From an uncultured virus (IMG/VR IMGVR_UViG_3300028564_000002) (taxonomy: Duplodnaviria > Heunggongvirae > Uroviricota > Caudoviricetes), in the IMG/VR virus record IMGVR_UViG_3300028564_000002: a DNA stretch of 20,000 nucleotides; one strand, given 5' to 3'. This document shows, piece after piece, positions 929 to 19,531 of this stretch. Below the pieces are notes generated by a model, which was given only the letters and a program-made list of their open reading frames with translations, did no database searches and was not told where the DNA came from. Each line of letters opens with the position of its first letter. The first letter of the stretch is position 1. Position numbers and translations under genes: made by a program.

Positions 929-1176
929 TGAATAAACTGGAAAGAGCAAAAGAAATTATTAAATCTCTTTATAGTATTTATGATTGCGGCATTTATAATA
1001 CTCGTAATATCGTAGGAGACCGTATGTCAACTATTTATGACGAAGATGGTCTGACTATTGAAGGATGTTATGAATGGTCTTATTTTGAAGTATTCGGTTT
1101 AACTGAAGTTGAGTTTATGAAACTTAAAAGTTTTTATAACTCTCTTGAATCAGAGGAGGAGGACGAAGACGAATGA
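928..1176 (+). CDS. Hypothetical phage protein
   Basis: AAGGAG RBS, coupled to both neighbours, acidic tail. Confidence 0.7.
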   Translation: MNKLERAKEIIKSLYSIYDCGIYNTRNIVGDRMSTIYDEDGLTIEGCYEWSYFEVFGLTEVEFMKLKSFYNSLESEEEDEDE

Positions 1177-3032
1177 AAGTAGAACTTATTGGTTATACAC
1201 ATAAGCCTCTTTATGTATGTGCTGAGGCGGCAGCTGTCTGTTATAATAGTGAGCCTGACCTTAAAATTATAAAGGGTTGTATTCGTTCAGGACACCAGTC
1301 TGTTCTTGAACATTGCTCATTCACCTTTAAGGTAGAAGGAATTTCCCGTAGTTGCTTTGATAGAGAGACAGAAGTATTAACAAATAATGGATGGAAACAT
1401 TTTTGTGATGTTGAAAATACAGACTTGATTTTTACAATAAATCAGGATACTCAAAAAGCAGAATTTCAGCCCATCTTAAATCAGATTAAATATAAATATA
1501 ATGGATTGATGCATTATTATAAATCTCAAAATATCGATTTGCTAGTAACACCAAATCATAACTTATATATGAAAAAATATGATGTAAGAGTTCCAGATAA
1601 ATATCATCTATGTCCATCTGAGGACATAAAAGTGAAACGTTTTTATATGAAAAAGACTGTTAACTATGATATAGAAGTTGATGATTATTTTACTATTCCA
1701 GGATACAGTTATTATAGAAAAAATAAAAATGGAGAGTTATATGAAAAAACGCTTTCCGATTTAAGACTCCCAAGAGATAATTTTTATAAATTATTAGCTT
1801 GGTATTTGGCAGAGGGAAGTACATATTATAATCAAAAAGAAAATTCTTATACTATTTCTATTAGTCAATTAAAAACTCAAAATATCGACCATATTATGGA
1901 AATAGTATCTAATTGTGGATTACGACCTTATTATGATGGAAAATCTATACGTTTTAAAAATATGGTTTTAGGAAAATATTTTTCTTCTTTAGGACTATCT
2001 TTAAACAAAAAAATTCCTTTTGATATTTTTACTAATTTTAATAAAAAACTATCAAAGATTTTTATAGATGAATATATATTAGGAGATGGGACAATTCAAA
2101 AAGATAAAAGTGGAAAAATTTTTACTATTTCAAAAGAATTATCTGAACAAATTTATAATTTATGTTTTATTGCTGGATATACTGCCACTAATCATATTGA
2201 TAATAGAGCAGGACAAAGTCATATATGGGATGGTCGAGAAATAAAACATAATTATCCTTGTTATATAATTAATATTTCTATGACTGGAAAAAGAAATCAT
2301 GAAATTGTGGTCAAAAAAGATTCTCACTTTTCAGAGATTCCTTTTAACGATTATGTCTATTGTATAGAGGTTCCTAATCATACTCTTTTTGTAAGAAGAA
2401 ATGGAATTGCTTGTTGGTGTGGAAATTGTAGTCATCAGCTCGTGAGACACAGAATTGCTTCATATTCACAGCAAAGTCAGCGTTATGTAACCTATGATTC
2501 TGTTGACTGGGCTGTAGATGGATTAGAGTATGATGCGGTAGAACCAACCTTGCTTGCTTGCGCTGATGCTATGACTGCTTATAAATCTATGATTGATAAT
2601 GGAGTTAAGGCTGAAAATGCCAGAGCAGTATTGCCTAATGCTACTCCAACAACTATATATGTCACCATGAATTTAAGGGCACTCATGCATTTTTGTAATG
2701 AGCGTATGTGTTCAAGAGCACAGACAGAAATTCGTAATGTTGCCATTGGTATGAAGAACGAAATCATGTGCGCAGAGTATATCACTACTGAAGAAAAAGA
2801 AATTATTGATACAGTTCTTGTTCCTAAATGCGCCGCAGGTCCTATTAAAGCCTGTCCTGAGGTCAAGGGATGCGGCAGATATAAGCCACTTAAAGAATTT
2901 GTATGGCGTCCAAAGGCAGAATGGCTTCACTATTATGCAGAGGGCGGCGGCGAAGAGTGTAGTATTTGTGGTTTTAGTGGTGGAATTAAAACATTTAAGT
3001 TCTGTCCTATGTGCGGTAGTGAGATGAGGTAA
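1173..3032 (+). CDS. thyX: FAD-dependent thymidylate synthase, intein-containing, with C-terminal Zn ribbon
   Basis: GHQSVLEH, RHRIASYSQQSQR (ThyX signature), ENARAVLP, NLRALMHF..R and AQTEIR motifs. Confidence 0.95.
   Translation: MKVELIGYTHKPLYVCAEAAAVCYNSEPDLKIIKGCIRSGHQSVLEHCSFTFKVEGISRSCFDRETEVLTNNGWKHFCDVENTDLIFTINQDTQKAEFQPILNQIKYKYNGLMHYYKSQNIDLLVTPNHNLYMKKYDVRVPDKYHLCPSEDIKVKRFYMKKTVNYDIEVDDYFTIPGYSYYRKNKNGELYEKTLSDLRLPRDNFYKLLAWYLAEGSTYYNQKENSYTISISQLKTQNIDHIMEIVSNCGLRPYYDGKSIRFKNMVLGKYFSSLGLSLNKKIPFDIFTNFNKKLSKIFIDEYILGDGTIQKDKSGKIFTISKELSEQIYNLCFIAGYTATNHIDNRAGQSHIWDGREIKHNYPCYIINISMTGKRNHEIVVKKDSHFSEIPFNDYVYCIEVPNHTLFVRRNGIACWCGNCSHQLVRHRIASYSQQSQRYVTYDSVDWAVDGLEYDAVEPTLLACADAMTAYKSMIDNGVKAENARAVLPNATPTTIYVTMNLRALMHFCNERMCSRAQTEIRNVAIGMKNEIMCAEYITTEEKEIIDTVLVPKCAAGPIKACPEVKGCGRYKPLKEFVWRPKAEWLHYYAEGGGEECSICGFSGGIKTFKFCPMCGSEMR
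1353..2426 (+). mobile_element. Intein (358 aa) with LAGLIDADG homing endonuclease
   Basis: Begins CFDRETEVLT, block B VTPNHNLY, LAGLIDADG-like LAWYLAEGS and FIDEYILGDG, ends VYCIEVPNH...WCGN|C. Removal restores GISRS-CSHQLVRHR. More AT-rich than its exteins. Confidence 0.93.
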
Positions 3033-3037
3033 GGCTT

Positions 3038-4054
3038 ATGATTGTAGCAGTAATAATTGGAATAATAGCTATTCTATTAATTCTCATCTACGCCATTCCT
3101 CGCATTAATAAATAGGTGGATAAGCCTGAATACTCTCAGACTTTCTTTGAACAGAAGAAGTTTATTTGTAAGAAGATGCGAGAGGAACAGCAAAAACTCG
3201 TAGAATAGAACAAGAAAGAAATTGACGACAGTCTTAAAGAATATGTCGCCAACTGTGATGCTAAGCGGTAGGCGGCATTGGACGAATTAGAACGTGCAAA
3301 ACAAACTCTCCATGACTCAGAGGAATACTATGCTCGGCGTTTAAAAGAACTTGAACAGAAAACTTTTGACCTTGTTGACGAGGAATCAAAGAAGTAGGCA
3401 TTGGAATTACAAGGCGTAGTAGACTTCTATCAAACTCGTAGACAAGAAATCTACAACGACTTTGAAGCTTTCCAAGAAAAAACTAATGCAAGACGTGAAG
3501 AATTGAATGAAGTTTTCAGAAGAGAAGAGGCTAAACAGCAGGAAATAATTGAGGGGTACAAGCGAGCTGAACAAATAAAACAAGATAAAAACTTTTATCG
3601 CATTGTTCTCAATGAAGATGCTTAGGATGACGTAAAGAAATTACGTAAGATAGCCACTGACCTTCATGACCCAACTATTATCTACAAGCTTATCTACAAG
3701 ACTTACTATGAAAAGCCATTCACTGAAATGGTTGGACGTGTTGTATCTAATGATGCAAGTGCTTGTGGTATCTACAAGATAACCAATTTTGAAAATGGAC
3801 GTTGCTATATAGGTCAAACCAGATAGGCTTTTAAAGAACGTTGGCGTACCCATTTGAAAAGAGGAGTTCGTGCCGAAGCAGGTACAGCTAATAAACTTTA
3901 TCAGGCTATGTGGGAAGAAGGAGCAGAAAACTTTACTTTTGAAGTTTTAGCGCAATGCTCCGCCGCCGAACTCAATGCGAAAGAAAAAGAATACATTGCT
4001 CTATACCATGCTGATACTTGGGGATACAATGGTAATAGCGGTATCGGAACATAA
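3038..4054 (+). CDS. N-terminal TM helix + coiled coil + C-terminal GIY-YIG nuclease (338 aa, 6 in-frame TAG)
   Basis: One frame from ATG 3038 to TAA 4054, broken only by TAG at 3113, 3206, 3269, 3395, 3623 and 3824. MIVAVIIGIIAILLILIYAI; GIYKITN...CYIGQT...ERWRTH...E..YI...GYN. Confidence 0.85.
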
Positions 4055-5350: not shown

Positions 5351-5379
5351 TTGACTTTTTAAATAATTTTTGTTATAAT
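5351..5379 (+). promoter_or_regulatory. Sigma70/SigA-type promoter
   Basis: TTGACT-17-TATAAT. Confidence 0.85.
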
Positions 5380-5412
5380 ATTATTGTAATAAAGATTAAG
5401 GAGGAAATATAA

Positions 5413-5667: not shown

Positions 5668-5737
5668 TTTCGATTGTCGTTCTGGTCATAATAGTTTTCG
5701 TACAATTTTTTAAAACTTTGCCAAAGGAGTGAGAAAA

Positions 5738-6529
5738 ATGATAGGCGCAATCGTAGGGGACGTGGTCGGTTCTCGATTTGAGTACCATAATCACAGAGAT
5801 AAAGAGTTCCCGTTATTTACAGATAGCTGTAAAGTAACGGATGATAGCATCATGACAACTGCCATAGCCATTGCCGTCATGGATTACAAAGAACATGGAC
5901 GGCCACTGGACAAGGCGGCAGTTCATTGGATGCGTAGAATAGGATAGCCATATAAAAACGCAGGATACGGCGGCAGATTTGCACAGTGGATGTATAGTTC
6001 TGACCCAAAACCTTATAATAGCTTTGGCAATGGTGCTGCTATGAGAGTATCGGCTTGTGCTTGGGCGGCAGATACAATGTTTGATGCAATTGAAATGAGT
6101 GATGAAGTTACAAAGGTAACTCATAATCATCCCGAAGGAATAAAGGGAGCAAGAGCTGTTACTGCGGCAATTTTCATGGCAAGAACAGGGTGTTCAAAGG
6201 ACGAGATTTATGAGTTCATTGACCAAAATTATTACTCATTAGATAAATCTGTTAATAAAATTCGGGAGACTTTACAGTTCGATGAAACTTGTCAGGTGAC
6301 TGTTCCAGTTGCTATACAGTGTTTCTATGAGTCAGAAGATTTTGAGGACTGTCTGCGTTTGGCTATTTCTGTCGGTGGAGATTCAGATACTATCGCCGCC
6401 ATAGCTTGTAGTATTGCCGAAGCATACTATGGAGTTCCAGAGAATATAAGAGAAAAAGTTTTAACTTTTGTTCCACAGCAACTTAAAGATATTTTATTCA
6501 GATTTGAGGAGATTTATGAAGAAGAATAA
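5738..6529 (+). CDS. ADP-ribosylglycohydrolase (DraG/ARH family; in-frame TAG at 5945-5947)
   Basis: GAIVGDVVGSRFE, TDDS, GYGGRF, NSFGNGAAMRVS, TH, GGDSDTIAAIA. ORFs 5729..5947 and 5990..6529 share a frame and are separated by one TAG. Confidence 0.92.
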
Positions 6530-7249: not shown

Positions 7250-7262
7250 CTCAGAGAAAAAT

Positions 7263-7291
7263 TTGACTTTTGAAAAAATTTATGATATAAT
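7263..7291 (+). promoter_or_regulatory. Sigma70/SigA-type promoter followed by an all-GC tract
   Basis: TTGACT-17-TATAAT with extended -10 TG, then CGCGCGCGCGCCCGCC. Confidence 0.75.
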
Positions 7292-7907: not shown

Positions 7908-8416
7908 ATGGAACAGCTTATTAAAAAGTTTGAATACAAGGATAAGGTATTACTACCATAGAAGAGATTTATGAGTATGATAGTAAAGTCTTTCAAGAGT
8001 GGCGAGATGCTGGCTTTATCAAAGGAACTGAAAAAGAAGAATTTGAAGAGGCTACTGACCGCTATATGCTCGATGTGCTCCGTTCAATTATATTCGACCC
8101 CGAACAAGACTTTGAGACAGACGAAGAGGCGAATGCCGCTTATGAAGAATCTATTGACCTTGGTCGTCAATTCTTAAAACTTGCATATGAACTTGACTTT
8201 TGGGACTATGCAGAAAAGACAGCTGATGGCACAGACCTTGATGACAGTTATATGGACGTAACCTATTACTTTAAGGACTACAAGGAAGAGAATCTTTACT
8301 TTGCTTTCAGTGGCAGAGAAACTCCTTGGACAAGTTATGATGAACATGACTATACTTTTTGGGCGGCGAAGCGTGTTCCAGTAACCACATATGAATATGT
8401 TTCTTATGATAAATAA
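7908..8416 (+). CDS. Acidic hypothetical protein with an apparent -1 frame break near 7945
   Basis: ATG 7908 (GAGG RBS) gives MEQLIKKFEYKDK. The frame of ORF 8066..8416 is open and protein-like from 7946 (GITTIEEIYEYDSKVFQEWRDAG...). Confidence 0.55.
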
Positions 8417-8434
8417 ATTTTAAATAAAGAAAAT

Positions 8435-8463
8435 TTGACTTTTTAAAAAATCTTTGATATAAT
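8435..8463 (+). promoter_or_regulatory. Sigma70/SigA-type promoter
   Basis: TTGACT-17-TATAAT with extended -10 TG. Confidence 0.85.
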
Positions 8464-8497
8464 ATATATAGAAAATCAAAAAGAAAAGGAATGATGC

Positions 8498-9424
8498 TTG
8501 ATGATGTTAAAAAAGTATGTTGATATCGAGCGTCTTAAGGATAAGTACGCTGAGGCTTTCAAGGCAGGAGAGCATATTACAATCACAGAGAAGATTGATG
8601 GTGCAAATGCATCCATCTCTGCAAACGAGGATGGCACACTTTCTTGTTTCTCAAGAAGACAGGAGCTGAGTGCTGAGAACGGTCTTCAGGGTTTCTACAA
8701 CTACGTTCAGACTCTTGACCCAACTATTATCTCAGCTACACTTGGCACAAGATACATCTTTTTCGGTGAGTGGAATTGTAAGCATACAATCGTATACCCT
8801 GAGAGCCGCCTTAAGCAGTTCTACGTATTCGATGTATGGGACACTGAGATTGAGCAGTACCTCCCTTGGGAGCAGACTAAGCAGATGGCAGAGTTCTGCG
8901 GTCTGAAGATGGTTCCGCTCTTCTACGACGGTCCTTTCACATCTTGGGAGGATATCTACAAGTTCGTAGGTAAGACTGAGATGGAGGGTAGTCCTACTGG
9001 TGAGGGTATCGTCATCAAGTCACAGGACCGTCTTGACAATAAGTCAAGCAGAACACCTGCATACGTAAAGATTGTCGCAAAGGAGTTCTCTGAGGTTCAC
9101 CAGTCTAAGCCACAGAAGGAGATTGACCCAGAGAAGCTTGCCAAGAAGCAGGCTGATGAGGCTCTCGCTGCAACAATCGTAACTGAACGAAGGGCGGAAA
9201 AAACTTTGGAAAAACTTATTGACGATACTCTTTTAAAACCTGACTGGGATGAGCATGATTTAGGCTATCTTGCTAAAACCGCACCTAAATTGGTATATGA
9301 AGATTGTAGAAAAGAGGAGCCTGAAATTGTAAATGCCATTGAAAACTTTGGAAAAATTTGTGCTAAATTAACTATGGCTCATATCCGCAACATTCTTCTT
9401 AATAAAAGCTCAGAAATTATTTGA
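8498..9424 (+). CDS. ATP-dependent RNA ligase (Rnl2-like family)
   Basis: Nucleotidyltransferase motifs I EKIDG, Ia SRR, III FFGEW, IIIa FYVFDV, IV EGIVIK and V YVKIV; no OB domain apparent. Confidence 0.88.
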   Translation: MMMLKKYVDIERLKDKYAEAFKAGEHITITEKIDGANASISANEDGTLSCFSRRQELSAENGLQGFYNYVQTLDPTIISATLGTRYIFFGEWNCKHTIVYPESRLKQFYVFDVWDTEIEQYLPWEQTKQMAEFCGLKMVPLFYDGPFTSWEDIYKFVGKTEMEGSPTGEGIVIKSQDRLDNKSSRTPAYVKIVAKEFSEVHQSKPQKEIDPEKLAKKQADEALAATIVTERRAEKTLEKLIDDTLLKPDWDEHDLGYLAKTAPKLVYEDCRKEEPEIVNAIENFGKICAKLTMAHIRNILLNKSSEII

Positions 9425-9466
9425 GGATAAAATAATAATTTCTACATCTTTATTGAGGTGATAAGA

Positions 9467-10381
9467 ATGGGAAAATTTATTGATTTGACTGGATAGATAT
9501 TTGGCGATTTAACTGTCATTGAAAGAGATACAACTGTTGCCGCAAGAGAAGCATATTGGAAATGTCGCTGTAGTTGCGGAAATATAATTTCGACAAGAGG
9601 GAGCACCCTTAGAGGTGGAAAAGCTACTTCCTGTGGATGTATGTCTGGTAAGAAAGCTGGCGAAAAAATGACAAAAGATTTAACTGGTTAGACTTTTGGC
9701 GAACTAACAGTTTTATAGAAAGATGAAACTAACACTCAAAAAGGAGCATTTTGGATTTGTAAATGTTCTTGTGGGACAATAAAAACTATAAATGGTTCAT
9801 CTCTTCGCCGCGGTGCCACCAAGAGTTGTGGATGTAAGTCTGCGCTTTTTGAAAGTCAAAAATATTATAAAGAAGATTTAAGCGGTGAAGTTTTTGGACG
9901 TTGGTAGGTTATAAAAAGAGATGAGGAAAATCATTTAGGACAAGGGGCTTATTGGCTTTGTCAATGTTCTTGTGGGACAGCGAAATCAGTAAGAGAAACA
10001 AACCTTAAAAACGGAAAGAGCTTATCTTGTGGATGTTTACAATCTCGTGGCGAATGGCTGATTTCTAATTGTTTAAAAGAACTTGGCTATGATTATAAAT
10101 CTTAGTATAGTTTCCCTGAGCTGTTAGGAGATTATCTTCCATTACGATTTGATTTTGCTATATTTGATAATGATACTATTTTAGCTTTAATAGAATATTA
10201 GGGAGAACAGCATTATCAAAACAGAGAATTTTTTGAAACGCATTAGTCTTTTGAAAAAAGGCAAGAATATGATTAGAGAAAAAGAGATTATTGTAAAAAT
10301 AATAATTTAACTTTAATTGAAATTCCGTATTGGGATTATAATAAAATTAACAAAGAGTATATTTCACATCTTATTAAGTAA
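9467..10381 (+). CDS. Putative free-standing homing endonuclease: three DL(T/S)G..FG...W.C.CSCG...SCGC repeats plus a Vsr/DUF559-like nuclease domain (304 aa, 8 in-frame TAG); absent from the ORF track
   Basis: GAGGTGA RBS; ATG 9467 to TAA 10381 broken only by TAG at 9494, 9689, 9716, 9905, 10103, 10199, 10244 and 10274. C-terminus SRGE...LRFDFAI...IEY(Q)GEQHY...D..KRDYC....LIEIPYW. Confidence 0.88.
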
Positions 10382-10398
10382 GGAGGAAGAAATAATCG

Positions 10399-10544
10399 AC
10401 CTCGGTGTAATCGCAAAGCATCTCCCTCGTGCAGTTTACAATGACTGTGTAAAGGAGGAATCCGAGACAGTTGAGCAGATTGAGAACTTCGGCAAGATTT
10501 GCGGCGCTCTCTCAATGAAGCTTGCAAGAGGTCTTATCAAGTGA
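10399..10544 (+). pseudogene. Orphaned duplicate of the RNA ligase 3' end
   Basis: DLGVIAKHLPRAVYNDCVKEESETVEQIENFGKICG aligns with the ligase tail DLGYLAKTAPKLVYEDCRKEEPEIVNAIENFGKICA. Confidence 0.85.
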
Positions 10545-12281: not shown

Positions 12282-13430
12282 ATGGCGGAAATAAAAATCG
12301 TATCAGGTCTTAACTATGGTGACGAATCTAAAGGACTCGTTGCCAATGCAGTATCAACTCCGACCTGTCTTAATATCTTACCCTCAAACTCTTGTCAGAG
12401 GGCACATACTGTTGTTCATAATGGTGTAAGAAGAGTTTTCCGTCACTTTGGTAGCGGTACTCTTAAAGGTGCCGCTACATATTTTTCTGAAGAGTTTATG
12501 GTAAATCCTGCTATGTTCAGACGTGAATGGGAAGAGCTTGAAGCTATGGGAATTACTCCCAAAGTCTATGCAAAAATAGGCGGTGTTATGGTATCTCCTG
12601 TTGATATGTTTGCCAACATAAATGTTGAGGGGCGCCGCGGCGATAATTCTCATTCATCTACAGGATGCGGCGTTTGGGAATCATTAAATCGTCATAGGGT
12701 TTGTACTGAAATGGCAGGTACACCTCACTATCATTTTGATACTTTAATCAAATATTATGAGGATGTTCTTAGGGATAAAGATGGTACACTGCCAGAGGAT
12801 ATTACTGATTTTCTTCATGGAGAATATCTCGAACAAAATATTGACGAAGATTTCCACTGGTTTTATGACCATATTACCTTGATTAAGAGCGACGAGGAAG
12901 AAAAAGCACTTCTCCATTCCTATCCTCTTCTTGTCTTTGAAAATGGACAGGGACTTCTTCTTGCGGATGACCATAGCTATGACTATGAACACAATACTCC
13001 TGCATATGTCGGTGCACGTGTTCCTTCTAAAATTATAACCGAAAATTTCGAGCAGAATGAAGTTGACATTGAGGCTCTCTATGTAACTCGTTCATACCTT
13101 ACTCGTCATGGCAAGGGACAAATAGGTCAGACTTCTAATCTTGAATGTAAGAAGGAAGATATCAATCCCGATATGGTTGACCTTACAAACGTTCCTAACC
13201 CTTATCAGGGCACTTTACGTTACGGCAAATTCGACAAGCGTGAAGCTGATGCCGCAGTAGCGAGAGCTATCAGAGACTCAAAGTACTTCTCTATGAAGGG
13301 ATGGAAAGCAACTCCATCACTTGTTGTAACTCACATCAACGAGTTCGCAGGACCAGAGATACTTACGGCGGCGAAGGGTAACATCAAGCTTTACACTTCT
13401 GATAATGAAGAGTCTATAAATTTAAAATAA
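12282..13430 (+). CDS. Adenylosuccinate synthetase-like protein (divergent PurA family)
   Basis: GLNYGDESKG, AHTV, HFGSG, STGCG, FENGQGLLL, VTRSYLTRHG.G, TN.PN.YQG.LRYG. Confidence 0.85.
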   Translation: MAEIKIVSGLNYGDESKGLVANAVSTPTCLNILPSNSCQRAHTVVHNGVRRVFRHFGSGTLKGAATYFSEEFMVNPAMFRREWEELEAMGITPKVYAKIGGVMVSPVDMFANINVEGRRGDNSHSSTGCGVWESLNRHRVCTEMAGTPHYHFDTLIKYYEDVLRDKDGTLPEDITDFLHGEYLEQNIDEDFHWFYDHITLIKSDEEEKALLHSYPLLVFENGQGLLLADDHSYDYEHNTPAYVGARVPSKIITENFEQNEVDIEALYVTRSYLTRHGKGQIGQTSNLECKKEDINPDMVDLTNVPNPYQGTLRYGKFDKREADAAVARAIRDSKYFSMKGWKATPSLVVTHINEFAGPEILTAAKGNIKLYTSDNEESINLK

Positions 13431-13437
13431 TAAAAAT

Positions 13438-13466
13438 TTGACTTTTCTGAAAAATAATAGTATAAT
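13438..13466 (+). promoter_or_regulatory. Sigma70/SigA-type promoter
   Basis: TTGACT-17-TATAAT. Confidence 0.85.
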
Positions 13467-13555
13467 ATATATAGAAAGTTAAGAGATTAAGTAATTTAAT
13501 AATTGATGATTTGATTTTATCAAAAACAACTTATTTATGGAAGGAGTGATGCTAT

Positions 13556-14476
13556 ATGATGCCAATTTTATATATGATGATTGGCGTTCCTTAACCAGGC
13601 TCTGGTAAGTCATTCATTGCTCGTGACCTTGGTTGCCCTATTGTCTCCTCAGATGATATCCGAGCAGAATTGTTCGGTTCTGAGGACGACCAGTCTCATA
13701 ATGGCGAGGTATTCAACGAGCTTCATAAGCGTATAAAGAGCTACCTTGCGAATGGGCAGTCTTGTGTTTATGACGCAACGAATTTATCTCGTAAGCGTAG
13801 AAAGAATTTTTTAAAGGAACTTCCTAAGGACGTTAAGAAGATTGCTGTAGTAGCGGCTACGGAAATCGACGTTATCTTAGAGCAGAACGCTAATCGTATG
13901 CGTCACGTTCCTGTTGATGTTATCATGAGAATGTTTAAGACTATGACTCTTCCTCGTCTTGACGAGGGCTGGAACTCAATTTGTCTTATCCCTAATCCTA
14001 AGAACAAGACAACTCTTGGTGAGTATTTGTATGACTGCTACGGTGTAGACCATGACAATCCTCACCACTCTGCAAACATCTTCGACCACATGATTGAAGC
14101 AGGAGCATATGCAAATGCACACGCAGATGAAAAGGGTCTTGACAGAGACCAGAAGCATCTTGCTCGCACTGCCGCCCTGTTCCATGATATTGGCAAGCCT
14201 ATTGTAAAGTCTCGTATGAAGGCTAACGGTCAGCTTGATGATAAGTCTCACTACTACAATCATGCCGAAATCGGAGCATACATGATTGCTTGCTGTGTAG
14301 GACAGTTCTCTGAAAAGCAGTATGAGTTTTACAAGAAGTTAATTGTTCTTGTTCAGTGGCATATGGATAGCTATGCTAACCCTAACCACTACCTTGACGA
14401 TTTTGAGACATCTTACGGCGGCGAAATGAGAAAGGTTCTCGAACTGGTTCATGAAGCCGATATGCACGCTCACTAA
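13556..14476 (+). CDS. Polynucleotide kinase-like P-loop domain fused to an HD domain; in-frame TAA at 13592-13594 inside Walker A
   Basis: AAGGAG RBS; MMPILYMMIGVP*PGSGKS...SSDDIRAEL...YDATNL..KRR; HD part NPHH...DH...LFHDIGKP...YNH..IGAY...HM...AD. Confidence 0.8.
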
Positions 14477-14485
14477 GGAGGATAT

Positions 14486-14659
14486 ATGTTTATACTTTTG
14501 ATACTTTTAAGTCTTGCCAATGCTATCGTATGTATGGGCTTTATTGTTGCGGAGTTTAAAGACAGAAAGACTCCAAGAAAAGGCAGGGTTATTTTTGAAG
14601 GTTTCAATATAATTTACTACATATGGTTTGCGGCATATGTTTATTTTAAATTAATTTGA
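14486..14659 (+). CDS. Small two-TM membrane protein (57 aa)
   Basis: AAGGAGG RBS; two hydrophobic segments around a basic loop KDRKTPRKGR. Confidence 0.7.
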   Translation: MFILLILLSLANAIVCMGFIVAEFKDRKTPRKGRVIFEGFNIIYYIWFAAYVYFKLI

Positions 14660-14668
14660 GTTAAAAAT

Positions 14669-14697
14669 TTGACTTTTTTCTAAATTTATGATATAAT
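14669..14697 (+). promoter_or_regulatory. Sigma70/SigA-type promoter upstream of the RNA cluster
   Basis: TTGACT-17-TATAAT with extended -10 TG; no RBS/ORF follows. Confidence 0.85.
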
Positions 14698-14736
14698 TAT
14701 TATAGAAACGGTGAGAGAATATTACATTTAATTATC

Positions 14737-14965: not shown

Positions 14966-15058
14966 GCGGTATTGGTGTAATGGTAACATATCTGAAATGT
15001 CGGGTTCGACCCCGCATCCGAACAGAGGTTGCGAGTTCGACTCTCGTATACCGCTCCA
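14966..15058 (+). tRNA. tRNA-Gly-like RNA (93 nt) with a 19-nt insertion in the anticodon loop
   Basis: Acceptor GCGGTAT/ATACCGC, T73, CCA; D arm GTGT-AATGGTA-ACAT; T arm GCGAG-TTCGACT-CTCGT; 4-nt variable loop; TCC at 15017-15019 in anticodon register from the 3' side. Confidence 0.75.
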
Positions 15059-15429: not shown

Positions 15430-16906
15430 AATGACCAAGCCAGAAAACCCCTAATCTTTAGATTAGGGGATGAATGGCTAATACACAATCCAACCTAAGT
15501 TGGCATAAATTGATTGTAATTTTAGTTATTTTAGTATATAATATACATATAGCAAATATTAAAGAAAGGAGGTTAATAAAGCATGGAATATGCAGTACAA
15601 AGTAATGTAATTCGTGGACTTACAAAAGAACAACATCAGATTTTAACAGAGTTGTGCCAATATTCAAATAATCTCTATAATGTAGCACTTTACAATATTA
15701 GACAGTATTTCTTTGCTCAAAATAAGTTTTTAACTTATGAAAGCAATTATCACGAATGTAAGGATAATGAAAATTACAGTTTACTACAAGCTGGTGTTGC
15801 ACAACAGACTATGAAAGTAGTAGACAGGTCTTTTAAGTCATTCTTTAACTTACTTAAAAAGTGCAAGCAAGGCGAATATCGTTACAATGATGTTAAGATT
15901 CCACACTATCGCAAGAAAGGTGGACTTTTTAACCTTGTGTTATCTACCAATGCTATTTCTATCAAAGATGGGTATTTCAAAATTCCTATGAGTAGAGAAT
16001 ATCGCAAACTTAAAAACTACAAAGACGATATTAAGATACCGTTTCCTAGTAGATTACAGGATAAAACTATTAAAGAAGTTCGTATATTGCCTTGTAGTAA
16101 TGGTAAGTATTTTAAGGTACAGTATGTCTATGTTGTAGAGCAAGAAATTAAGACTTTAGATAAGGATAAAGTTATGGCTATTGATATAGGAGTAGAAAAC
16201 CTTGCTACTTGTGTTTCCAATGTAATGACACCATTCATTATGGATGGTCGTAGGATTAAATCAATCAACCAGTATTGGAATAAGCAAATGGCAAAGTGTA
16301 AATCTATTGCTATGAAACAGCAAAAGACATCTAAAGTCACTACAAACCGTATTCAAAGACTTACTACTAAAAGAAATAATCAGGTTACTGACTGTATTAA
16401 GAAAACAGCTAGATATATTATCAATCAATGCCTTGCAAATAATATAGGAACTTTAATTGTGGGTTATAACAAAGATTTCAAGCGTTCTGTAAATATAGGA
16501 AAGCAGAATAATCAAAACTTTACACAATTACCATTTGGTAGTCTAAGAGAGCAATTACAATTCTTATGTTGGAAGTATGGTATTGAGTACATAGAAGTAG
16601 AAGAAAGTTATACATCAAAGAGTAGTTTTTTGGATAATGATGAATTACCAGAGTATAGACCAGAGCAACCATATACAAAAGGTTTTAGTGGTAAAAGAAT
16701 AAAAAGAGGGCTATACCAAAGTAAGAATGGTACAACTATCAATGCAGATGTAAATGGAGCATATAATATATTAAGAAAAGGTAAGCAGGACTTCACTTGT
16801 GAAGAACTGTCTAGTGGGCTATTGGCAAGTCCGTTACGAATAAGGTTGTCGTAAGGCAACAAACTTGGTAAGAATCCCCGATGCTTTAGCATCGTGGGAG
16901 TGTCAA
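15430..16906 (+). mobile_element. Non-autonomous IS200/IS605-family (IS1341-like) element carrying only tnpB
   Basis: Left hairpin CCCCTAATC-TTTA-GATTAGGGG (15448-15469); right hairpin CCCCGATGC-TTTA-GCATCGTGGG preceded by GAAT and ending in TCAA (16903-16906), as in IS608. Left boundary inferred just after TTTAT (15425-15429). Confidence 0.8.
15583..16854 (+). CDS. tnpB: RNA-guided endonuclease TnpB
   Basis: NLYNVAL, RuvC-I AIDIGVENLA, EESYTSK, RuvC-III NADVNGAYNI; AAGGAGG RBS. Confidence 0.93.
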   Translation: MEYAVQSNVIRGLTKEQHQILTELCQYSNNLYNVALYNIRQYFFAQNKFLTYESNYHECKDNENYSLLQAGVAQQTMKVVDRSFKSFFNLLKKCKQGEYRYNDVKIPHYRKKGGLFNLVLSTNAISIKDGYFKIPMSREYRKLKNYKDDIKIPFPSRLQDKTIKEVRILPCSNGKYFKVQYVYVVEQEIKTLDKDKVMAIDIGVENLATCVSNVMTPFIMDGRRIKSINQYWNKQMAKCKSIAMKQQKTSKVTTNRIQRLTTKRNNQVTDCIKKTARYIINQCLANNIGTLIVGYNKDFKRSVNIGKQNNQNFTQLPFGSLREQLQFLCWKYGIEYIEVEESYTSKSSFLDNDELPEYRPEQPYTKGFSGKRIKRGLYQSKNGTTINADVNGAYNILRKGKQDFTCEELSSGLLASPLRIRLS

Positions 16907-18031: not shown

Positions 18032-19531
18032 ATGAATATGAGTAATTTTGCAAATTCATTCAGAGGTAACACAAATGTAACTTCCACAGAGAATGGTGCT
18101 AAGGTCTATTCTTCAACTGGTAATGCAGTTCTGAATCTCTTTGCCCGTATCGGTGGTATGCGTTCAGCTTCAGAAGCTGAGCTTAACAGAATGTATCTTG
18201 ATGCTCGTAATACCGACAAGGAACTTGCAGACAACATGATACTTTATGCTCGTGATATCCGCAACGGCGGTATTGGTGAGCGTAAGATTGCAAGAACTCT
18301 CTTGAAGACTCTTGCACTTAAGGACCCAGCAAAGGTAGGTCGTAACTTCGATACTATCGTAACTGCTGGTAGATGGGACGACTTGTTCGTTCTTGAAGGC
18401 ACTTCACTTGAGACTCAGGCTTTTGATTACATGAAGACACAGTTCCGTAAGGATATTGTTGACATGACTAACAAGCAGTCTATTTCTCTTCTTGCTAAGT
18501 GGCTTCCATCTCCAAACACATCTTCAAAGGAGACACGTAGACTTGCTCGCAAGGTTTACACTTACTTCGGTATAACTGAGAGAACATACAGAAAGACTCT
18601 TTCTGCTCTTAGAAAGTACCTTGATGTTGTCGAGAAGAAGATGTCTGCTAATAAGTTCGAGACAATCGACTATTCAGCAGTTCCATCTGTTGCTATGACA
18701 AGATACCGTTCAGCTTTTGGTCGTCACGACTTCGAGCGTTTTGACAAGTTCCTTAACGCTGTTGAGAAGGGTGAGACTAAGATAAATGCTGCAACATCTT
18801 ACCCATATGACCTTATTATGCCTTATATCAACCAGTGTGGTAGAGACTGGGGTTACTGGGGTTACAACAGAGTTGCAAATATTGATAAGACTCTTGAAGC
18901 ACAGTGGAAGGCACTTCCAAACTATGTCGAGGGTAACCACGATGTAATTGTAATGTCTGACGTATCTGGCTCTATGTTCTGCGAGGGTAATAGACCTATT
19001 GCTACATCCGTGGCACTTGGTATTTACTTTGCTGAGCGTAACAAGGGTGCTTATCAGAACCTTATGCTTACATTCACTGACGTTCCAAAGATGTTTGAGC
19101 TTGACCCAAACACTTCTGTTGCTTCTCGTGTAAACGAGGTTATGCAGAACGTTGGTTATCACACAAATCTTGACGGCGCATTTAGTGCTATCCTTCAGAC
19201 TGCCGTTCAGGCTGGCGAGGCTCCAAAGGCTCTCGTTGTAATCTCTGACGGCGAGATTGATAGATACTCATGCAATCCTGTTCTTGCAAGTAACATTGTA
19301 GAGAAGTGGACAGTCGAGTATGCTCGTAGAGGTCTTGTTGCTCCAAAGCTTATCATGTGGAACGTTGAGAGCCGCGGCTCCCGTTTCGTTGCTAAGTCTA
19401 ACAACCCTAACGTAGCATTTGTATCTGGTAGCTCAGCATCTACATTTAAGGAGCTTACAACTCTTATCAATGAAGATGCTATGACAGCTATGACTAAGAT
19501 ACTTACTAAGCCACAGTTCACATGGAAGTAA
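18032..19531 (+). CDS. DUF2828 / TROVE-like helical domain + vWA protein (Ro60-like architecture)
   Basis: TENGA..YSSTG..VLNLF, RDIR.GG.GER, GRWDDL, SLLAKWLPS, YRK.LS.LR, Y..VPS.AM, QW, vWA SDVSGSM, T and ISDGE, MWNV. Confidence 0.85.
   Translation: MNMSNFANSFRGNTNVTSTENGAKVYSSTGNAVLNLFARIGGMRSASEAELNRMYLDARNTDKELADNMILYARDIRNGGIGERKIARTLLKTLALKDPAKVGRNFDTIVTAGRWDDLFVLEGTSLETQAFDYMKTQFRKDIVDMTNKQSISLLAKWLPSPNTSSKETRRLARKVYTYFGITERTYRKTLSALRKYLDVVEKKMSANKFETIDYSAVPSVAMTRYRSAFGRHDFERFDKFLNAVEKGETKINAATSYPYDLIMPYINQCGRDWGYWGYNRVANIDKTLEAQWKALPNYVEGNHDVIVMSDVSGSMFCEGNRPIATSVALGIYFAERNKGAYQNLMLTFTDVPKMFELDPNTSVASRVNEVMQNVGYHTNLDGAFSAILQTAVQAGEAPKALVVISDGEIDRYSCNPVLASNIVEKWTVEYARRGLVAPKLIMWNVESRGSRFVAKSNNPNVAFVSGSSASTFKELTTLINEDAMTAMTKILTKPQFTWK

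Follow-up and report, generated by a model that had tools for sequence, protein, structure and literature searches.

How can a kinase be made from a gene whose phosphate-binding loop is split by a stop codon? The question is raised by the gene at 13556..14476 (+ strand) of the window, that is, the whole 20,000-nt stretch of DNA of an uncultured virus (IMG/VR IMGVR_UViG_3300028564_000002) that was analysed in the present study. This polynucleotide-kinase-like AAA_33 and HD-domain gene has 307 codons, of which one is an internal and one the final stop. Apart from the former, the frame stays open to 14476; CCT TAA CCA stands twelve codons after the ATG at 13556, where the Walker A codons run ATT GGC GTT CCT TAA CCA GGC TCT GGT AAG TCA. 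A preliminary description of this sequence had proposed that the ribosome hops over the stop between two matched Pro codons, and that such a hop could tie kinase output to release-factor or tRNA-Pro status. It had named a mobile-element footprint, an intron remnant and an assembly artefact as alternatives. In the present study, the site was examined in the window and in homologous loci of phages and prokaryotes.

Results

Under the hop model, the take-off codon CCT (Pro) lies at 13589..13591 (+), the stop codon TAA, which would be in the A site at take-off, at 13592..13594 (+), and the landing triplet CCA, which would be skipped and not decoded, at 13595..13597 (+). The resume codon (Gly) and the remainder of Walker A (G-S-G-K-S) occupy 13598..13612 (+). 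Both domains are encoded 3' of the stop, AAA_33 with E 1e-16 and HD with E 2e-10. The best solved relatives of the kinase are 4gp7 and 4jst (E 4e-9), whose records say only 'Metallophosphoesterase' and which we take to be bacterial Pnkp kinase domains; intact homologues in Bacillus phages carry the annotation polynucleotide kinase. These homologues and a strong Shine-Dalgarno sequence (13541..13549, +), which overlaps the last two codons and the stop of a nuclease remnant, suggest a Bacillota-like host.

The splitting of Walker A by CCT-TAA-CCA was confirmed in the sequence itself, in an independent contig (L001) with an identical site and in contigs from sequencing runs. Two of four runs had a contig that bridges the site with no indel, namely X14 from an RNA library (13300-13716) and X16 from DNA (13537-13751), and the other two were not bridging. 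Another RNA-library contig stops at 13591, and such contig holes prove nothing. The reality of the six extra bases, which had been left to the reads, was upheld by their retention in the L001, X14 and X16 contigs, and an assembly artefact is ruled out by the independent contig and the two bridging ones, one of them from an RNA library. Across the region, the window does not differ from its nearest virus record, a 13-kb fragment. The same insert was found in relatives at 77% and 74% protein identity (with TAA) and at about 40% (with TAG). A self-splicing intron or intein was also rejected, as the insert has 6 nt with no catalytic RNA core or splicing domain within it. The 9-mer CCT-TAA-CCA has one match in the window against 0.42 expected and is present in 74 of 200 shuffles; being unremarkable on its own, it takes its significance from conservation.

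After removal of duplicates, 258 non-redundant homologous sites were obtained, which are not independent lineages; 100 were interrupted by a Pro codon, a stop and a landing triplet, and 158 were intact. Loci with an HMM score below 30, with less than 60 nt upstream or with a duplicate 120-nt window were dropped from the counts. Three subfamilies were distinguished: A1, a stand-alone kinase of about 140 aa; A2, the kinase-HD form of the window; and A3, of about 300 aa with a C-terminal domain. A fourth kinase subfamily, read by eye (L358, L427, L440 and L441), has the same hairpin-Pro-stop site.

Pattern scanning of IMG/VR for Gly-x-Pro-[TRR]-Pro-Gly-Ser-Gly-Lys gave 48 loci; 44 were kinase genes with a stop, and the 4 TGG matches were not kinase genes. 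When the middle codon was left free, stops were found in 35 of 39 matches, the remaining 4 being noise and not kinase genes. When Ser, Thr or Ala was allowed on either side, the take-off residue was Pro in all 47 kinase matches (of 48), three of which land on TCA; Ala, Ser and Thr were thus rejected as take-off residues, none being found among the 48 matches. When the third triplet was unconstrained, 117 matches were obtained from metagenomes, 85 genuine and 32 noise; 41 of the 117 were missed by the HMMs, and 9 of these, genuine by eye, are counted in the 85 and lie outside the 100. Protein-based scans, whose seeds lay downstream of the loop and were taken from interrupted genes, gave rough frequencies of interruption in the three subfamilies (9/80, 8/66 and 16/80). 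Among prokaryotes (one genome per species, 185,579), a pattern that demanded Pro on both sides had 44 matches, one of them genuine, in a Saprospirales bin, and the other 43 by reading not kinase genes. The element is therefore essentially phage-borne, and from this one bin the A1 hosts may be Bacteroidota-like. In cultured phages, protein searches found distant kinases only and no near relative of the nuclease, and DNA searches with two cassettes gave no real match.

The take-off codons at the 100 interrupted sites, whose classification required CC at this position, were CCT in 53, CCG in 41, CCA in 6 and CCC in none. The stops were TAA in 54, TGA in 33 and TAG in 13, with no sense codon, and TGG stood at the stop position in 0/85 genuine as against 16/32 noise matches. 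That the insert varies among exactly three stops and never has TGG points to decoding and argues against an excision of the 5-7 nt, either from the RNA by cleavage and ligation, possibly with phage RNA-repair enzymes, or, in a fraction of the population, from the DNA. We hold such excision to be very unlikely. An RNA ligase is encoded at 8498-9424 and a structured RNA marks the site, whereas the RNA-library contig spans the site with the insert in place and no joints or deletions were listed, with the reservation that contigs may drop minority forms and that DNA carry-over is possible.

The gap was 6 nt at 93 of these sites, 7 nt at 4 and 5 nt at 3. Among 226 protein-based loci, 219 were classifiable, and none of these had a gap longer than 12 nt. 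The loci with 7 nt (L547, L561, L563-565 and L595) and with 5 nt (L461, the L510 group and L593) were found by scans that did not presuppose the site, and they keep the hairpin, the upstream frame, the Pro codon with the stop and an open downstream frame. Since gaps of 5 and 7 nt are out of frame, readthrough cannot bridge them, and this is the strongest argument against it; one forward-sliding mechanism would cover gaps of 5, 6 and 7 nt. A working kinase with a P-loop two residues longer, produced by readthrough at the 6-nt sites and by single-base frameshifts at the others, is in our judgement improbable. All three gap lengths could formally be bridged in this way (+1 shift, readthrough and -1 shift), and many A1 sites have a G-rich stretch right before the take-off codon, which is the layout of the prfB +1 shift site. 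Furthermore, suppressor activity exists in the window phage, which reads TAG as Gln. However, three mechanisms would be required at one unchanged signal, and the Walker A spacing would be broken relative to the solved relatives 4gp7 and 4jst. In addition, all three stops are used (in TGA-site loci, 18/33 kinase genes also end in TGA), and neither a sense codon nor a longer loop has become fixed, a sense loop two residues longer being found at 0/158 intact sites and in 0/39 matches of the free-codon scan.

Recoding of the phage, which the preliminary description had implied, was borne out: the genes at 347-928, 3038-4054, 5729-6529 and 9458-10381 are among those that open only with TAG as Gln. 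With this code, 9458-10381 becomes open across 8 TAGs, and the Pfam match in 5729-6529, otherwise confined to profile positions 118-281, covers 3-281. The hop site uses TAA, which is still a stop here, so TAG recoding does not explain it. Stop reassignment was rejected for the other loci as well; in the TAG-site loci L008, L284 and L294, reading TAG as Gln raises the coding coverage by only 0.01-0.03, and the TGA-site kinase genes use TGG 53 times, with 18/33 ending in TGA. Over the stretch compared, the relatives L002, L005 and L006 look recoded, and L003, L004 and L007 gain little coverage.

The landing triplets at the 100 sites were CCA 30, CTA 29, CCG 13, CTT 8, CCT 6, TCA 4, CTG 4, ACA 3, TTA 2 and ATG 1. 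Thus a Pro codon was found in 49/100, including the window (CCT/CCA), and a non-Pro triplet in 51/100. The 51 non-Pro landings need G·U at position 1 or 2, four of them (ACA, ATG) with an A mismatch. Where the triplet was left free in the search, positions 1-2 were pyrimidines (YY) in 84/85 genuine and 3/32 noise matches. Exceptions to the landing rule are ATG (L381, site near 1540, - strand), ACA (three sites with 5 nt) and CCC (L442). At the corresponding residue, the 158 intact sites have Pro in 133, Ser in 18, Ala in 4 and Val, Cys and Gln in one each. Leu codons make up 43/100 of the landing triplets and Leu never occurs at this position in intact alleles, so the landing triplet is unlikely to be decoded. 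The set would fit a peptidyl-tRNA-Pro(UGG) that pairs anew, using G·U at positions 1-2. By a simple home-made score, the frame-restoring triplet was the best or tied-best anticodon match within +3..+12 at 97/100 sites, with ties only at +11 or +12. In a tree of 42 linked nucleases, landing changes between Pro and non-Pro 11 times, 3 of them forced by strong branches. A C-to-T transition bias starting from CCA could yield part of the YY pattern without selection.

The third triplet also bears on termination at the stop followed by re-initiation on the next triplet, with assembly of the two chains, which seems to us extremely unlikely. It is ATG at one site (L381), where it could permit re-initiation, and CTG at four, and rescue of split genes is described for MobA and MobE insertions in the accessible text of bioRxiv 10.1101/2022.08.31.505936. 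Against this, 49/100 third triplets are Pro codons, most of the others are not start codons, and the break would fall within the phosphate-binding loop.

The preliminary description had overlooked a conserved 5' hairpin. In the window, this stem-loop (13558..13588, +) has 10 bp, three of them G·U, and an 11-nt loop, and ends on the base that directly precedes the take-off codon; its energy is -10.5 kcal/mol (z -2.5), and 4/200 shuffles fold equally well. The intact L002, L003 and L007 fold no better than shuffles (z +1.4, +1.0 and -0.3). Similar hairpins were found in L005, L350, L355 and L402 and a weaker one in L008. When the 45 nt before the stop were folded, the mean MFE of interrupted and intact alleles was -23.4 and -3.2 kcal/mol in A1 (n 73 and 59) and -23.0 and -4.3 kcal/mol in A3 (n 19 and 45). 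Values of z below -2.5 were obtained for 99% (A1) and 100% (A3) of interrupted alleles as against 3% and 7% of intact ones. The 3' arm reaches or nearly reaches the first C of the take-off codon, and the 5' arm in A1 sits on an N-terminal extension, which intact genes do not have. With the pair register picked for each sequence and the controls searched identically, at least 8 of 9 pairs were formed in 74/84 cassettes and 3/100 intact alleles. One column covaries as C-G 55, G-C 19, U-A 6 and A-U 4.

In the subfamily of the window, the hairpin has another sequence and is weaker (mean z -1.8, n 8); the first codons pair with the codons before take-off, and it overlaps the start codon. By arm-to-arm duplex energy, 7/8 interrupted alleles of this subfamily exceed 53/54 intact ones. 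A small hairpin enclosing the stop (CCN..NGG) was rejected, as its variable pair was formed in 44/83, which is about the expectation from base frequencies, with no covariation.

The interrupted gene bears several marks of a gene in use. In 87/87 interrupted loci with enough sequence, no stop closes the downstream frame within the tested length; in one further site (L436), this frame has only 18 codons. An in-frame ATG is found at most 35 codons upstream with no intervening stop in 78/83, and of the five misses two have GTG and three are open further upstream. The beta-strand codons before the loop are conserved, and dN is lower than dS in all 11 named pairs with a computable dS. The median dN/dS of interrupted and intact alleles was 0.46 (58 pairs) and 0.23 (130 pairs) in A1, 0.38 and 0.30 in A3, and 0.16 (2 pairs) and 0.12 in A2. 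The higher values of the interrupted alleles could reflect a partial relaxation, and alleles that homed recently would also take over from intact donors a sequence with the look of purifying selection. The conserved CCN-stop-CCN under purifying selection, which the preliminary description had named as a check, was found in part: 100/258 sites are interrupted and dN is below dS, whereas the landing is CCN in only 49/100.

These data also concern the possibility that the cassette knocks the kinase out or down, the gene being dispensable or giving only the HD part from an internal start, and the hairpin serving, for example, the stability or regulation of the nuclease transcript. We regard this as unlikely. 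The somewhat higher dN/dS is in its favour, many insertions look recent, an in-frame TTG start is present at 13670, 3' of the hop site, and the hairpin overlaps the start codon in the window's subfamily. On the other side, the cassette restores an in-frame start together with the beta-strand and Gly-x-Pro codons, A1 lacks a further domain that could be expressed, and the downstream frames are open in 87/87, the 1-nt indels that were seen falling within the gap. Furthermore, the hairpin outlasts loss of the nuclease and is present with the nuclease in either orientation.

A nuclease gene was found upstream within 1.3 kb in 21/44 interrupted and 0/55 intact A1 loci (17/40 interrupted without the training loci) and in 2/9 interrupted and 0/49 intact A3 loci; about half of the interrupted loci are without a nuclease. 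The A1 nuclease, with NUMOD3 and a TnsA-like PD-(D/E)XK domain, lies directly upstream in either orientation. Of its 80 loci, 47 adjoin an interrupted and 3 an intact kinase, and a kinase 5' end is missing from the flank of the other 30. In many of these 30 loci (L570-L615), more distant family members adjoin RecA-like and nucleotide-kinase-like genes whose P-loops are, by eye, apparently uninterrupted. Such neighbours suggest that the family targets P-loop codons. Other hop loci have an HNH gene (L350) or a GIY-YIG gene (L394).

The boundaries of the cassette are sharp. Outside a 1-kb cassette whose end coincides with the hop, L227 and L235 share 98% identity on one side and 97% on the other. 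In most pairs compared, the identity to intact relatives returns within about 13 nt of the site. In the kinase tree, a quick tree of 115 columns, interrupted and intact genes interleave, and the label needs 21 changes, 7 of them forced by well-supported branches. Thus, three features of a homing cassette were found, namely linkage of the nuclease to the altered allele, patchy distribution and a sharp co-conversion boundary at the target.

In the window, the remnant of the mobile cassette extends over 13487..13597 (+) by alignment and comprises the tail of a nuclease, the ribosome-binding site, a replacement kinase 5' end and the hop site. The block from 13487 on is common to L005 and L006 and absent from the intact L002 and L003. 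Its first part (13487..13549, +), identified by translation and tblastn, is the last 20 codons with the TGA stop of a homing-endonuclease-like gene, and the translation corresponds to the C-terminus of the full-length 312-aa proteins P0002 and P0003 from public assemblies (P0002 with 47 members; 91% over residues 291-312 by tblastn). P0002 matches PHROG 9084 'homing endonuclease' with E 7e-25, and L005 and L006 retain 79 and 47 residues of this nuclease type at the same place. By our own reading, P0143, a frameshifted member of the P0002 type, continues into a kinase 5' end that is read in another frame and is spaced as in the inserted allele. No intact gene of the window's nuclease type was seen in DNA beside an interrupted kinase; the link of this type to the hop rests on the remnants, protein P0143 and the HNH gene in L350.

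Upstream, a promoter-like -35/-10 pair read from the sequence (TTGACT, 17 nt, TATAAT; 13438..13466, +) appears to belong to the host locus outside the cassette, and the promoter block aligns, up to 13486, with sequence ahead of the intact L002 and L003 genes. The 300 nt after the cassette are identical to the intact L003 at 289/300 positions and to the interrupted L005 at 261/300. The window gene is a mosaic, in which the promoter and the first 300 kinase nt resemble the intact L003 and the cassette resembles L005. Of the alternatives named earlier, the mobile-element footprint was right in that the insert belongs to a homing-endonuclease cassette, with its tail at 13487..13549, and it is the likely origin of the hop site and not an alternative to it.

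Several further features of the window were observed. Promoter-like blocks are repeated ahead of several genes (about 25-74, 5351-5402, 7258-7291, 8415-8504, 13418-13486 and 14644-14719, from alignments). At 9458-10381 and 10317-10544, after the RNA ligase, there are a second homing-endonuclease-like gene and, behind it, the ligase C-terminus in a second, displaced copy, which looks like the trace of another cassette put in place of the ligase 3' end. The gene at 1173-3032 encodes a ThyX thymidylate synthase with an intein that has a weak LAGLIDADG match, and that at 3038-4054 a GIY-YIG domain preceded by a hydrophobic stretch at the N-terminus and by a long charged region. At 14966-15058, a 93-nt tRNA-like gene has no assignable anticodon and, in its anticodon loop, about 18 extra bases that form a T-loop-like hairpin; near that place, L002-L004 and L007 have a tRNA-Gly(TCC) with a different body sequence. 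A TnpB/Cas12f-like IS605-type gene (15583-16854) lies among tRNA genes with no adjoining transposase. The gene at 18032-19531, which is separated by a few kb from the genes for RNA repair and from the tRNA-like RNA, encodes a DUF2828 and DUF7788 protein, which is presumably Ro/TROVE-like.

Discussion

In the present study, the element in the kinase gene proved to be real, conserved and mobile, and it is very probably recoded. We consider it quite likely that a programmed hop restores a loop of normal length, and likely that this hop is driven by the hairpin over 5–7 nt and rescues an insert by which a homing cassette disrupts its target. The stop-hop of the preliminary description therefore received strong comparative support from the interruption of 100/258 sites, the out-of-frame gaps, the landing rule and the hairpin. 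Its requirement for matched codons did not stand: strictly matched flanking Pro codons are excluded by the 51/100 non-Pro landings and by gaps of 5 or 7 nt. The suggested coupling to release-factor or tRNA-Pro status was unsupported, as all three stops are used and the TAG- and TGA-site loci that were checked look standard-code. A regulatory use on top of the hop is possible, and nothing in the analysis supports it.

A mechanism that joins the observed anatomy, conservation, hairpin covariation, variable gap length, nuclease linkage and mosaic boundaries may be proposed. During mixed infection, a free-standing endonuclease would cut the intact kinase allele in or near the Walker A codons, and repair would bring in the nuclease gene together with a replacement kinase 5' end carrying the 5-7 nt insert. 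The insert would spoil the nuclease target and so protect the carrier. In translation, the ribosome would stall with peptidyl-tRNA-Pro(UGG) on CCT, CCG or CCA and the stop in the A site, and the just-translated mRNA would zip into the hairpin, whose 3' arm would reach the take-off codon and push the ribosome forward. The tRNA would then re-pair 5-7 nt downstream on the best-matching triplet, with G·U allowed, and decoding would restart at Gly to give the normal G-x-P-G-S-G-K-S loop. The window would have lost the nuclease save for its last 20 codons, with the hop persisting. Free-standing phage homing endonucleases have their gene outside the target gene and spread with a resistant version of the target, and this resistance is normally a sequence polymorphism; here, in contrast, it would come from a stop-containing insert that is skipped in translation.

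Bypassing in T4 gene 60 and the MobA element are described in the accessible texts of bioRxiv 10.1101/2022.08.31.505936 and bioRxiv 10.1101/2024.12.09.627546. The kinase site shares with the gene 60 type a take-off codon followed by a stop (100/100 sites, by classification), a gap independent of frame (5, 6 or 7 nt) and a 5' stem-loop upstream of take-off. In the gene 60 model, as given in PMC5009743, a 5' stem-loop finishes pairing in the wake of the stalled ribosome and serves as a motor, and the geometry of the kinase hairpin would fit such a role. The 5' stem-loop is the most conserved element here, whereas for gene 60 bypassing and MobA it was found not to be conserved from clade to clade (bioRxiv 10.1101/2022.08.31.505936). 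The kinase gap of 5-7 nt is a tenth of the 50 nt of gene 60 and, being too short for them, has no take-off stem-loop, no mini-SD 6 nt before landing and no AU-rich tract. Landing in the kinase is often on a non-synonymous triplet, unlike in gene 60. In the window, only 12 residues precede take-off, so a peptide signal 25-30 residues upstream like that of gene 60 cannot exist there.

The bypass insert of the MobA element, in the accessible text of bioRxiv 10.1101/2022.08.31.505936, blocks self-nicking, outlives loss of the nuclease and accepts other nucleases. Like it, the kinase hop persists after nuclease loss and pairs with several nuclease types. However, the target is an AAA_33 P-loop kinase and not topoisomerase II, the gene is not split in two, and the nucleases are of the NUMOD3/TnsA-like, PHROG-9084, HNH or GIY-YIG types and not MobA. 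The site would work like gene 60 bypassing and is not a MobA element.

Few natural genes with programmed bypassing are known, and no natural in-frame stop hopping was known in 2016, according to the accessible part of a review (PMC5009743). Synthetic stop-hops in E. coli, as presented there, have one-tRNA codons flanking a stop, and nine nt specify one amino acid. The kinase site resembles them in both respects, insofar as this part describes them, and differs in being natural, conserved and provided with a dedicated stimulator, theirs being artificial constructs. The terminase of Streptomyces phage Hau3 is likewise a short natural bypass in a phage gene and has experimental support of its own; its trigger is a hungry sense codon, UUA, it has an SD element, a regulatory role has been proposed for it, and the available parts of its accounts mention no stop codon, hairpin or nuclease (PMC10732093, PMC5009743). 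The byps of Magnusiomyces mitochondria are also mobile inserts skipped by the ribosome, with imperfect landing codons tolerated. They differ, in the portions of the sources available, by their 27-55 nt, mitochondrial setting, unused sense codon in the A site, presence in many genes and relaxed mitochondrial decoding (PMC5009743, bioRxiv 10.1101/2022.08.31.505936). Our search, with most subscription journals outside its coverage, found no published description of the kinase element.

Conclusion

On balance, we lean towards a widespread and undescribed class of minimal bypass, consisting of a hairpin of about 35 nt, a Pro codon, a stop and 2-4 nt, which would let homing endonucleases occupy P-loop codons with neither an intron nor an intein. 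It may be efficient on the ribosomes of at least two bacterial phyla, and the jump would be set mainly by hairpin zipping so that mismatched landings work; if so, it would be the first in-frame stop-hop from nature. The 45-nt signal exists in about 100 natural variants, which vary in stop, gap length and landing triplet and make it testable whether the 5' hairpin alone is a ribosome-sliding motor and how much codon-anticodon pairing a landing requires. Gene callers truncate these kinases, and their in-frame stops could pass for pseudogenes or readthrough. It is suggested that selfish nucleases have a third route into conserved motifs, besides introns and inteins.
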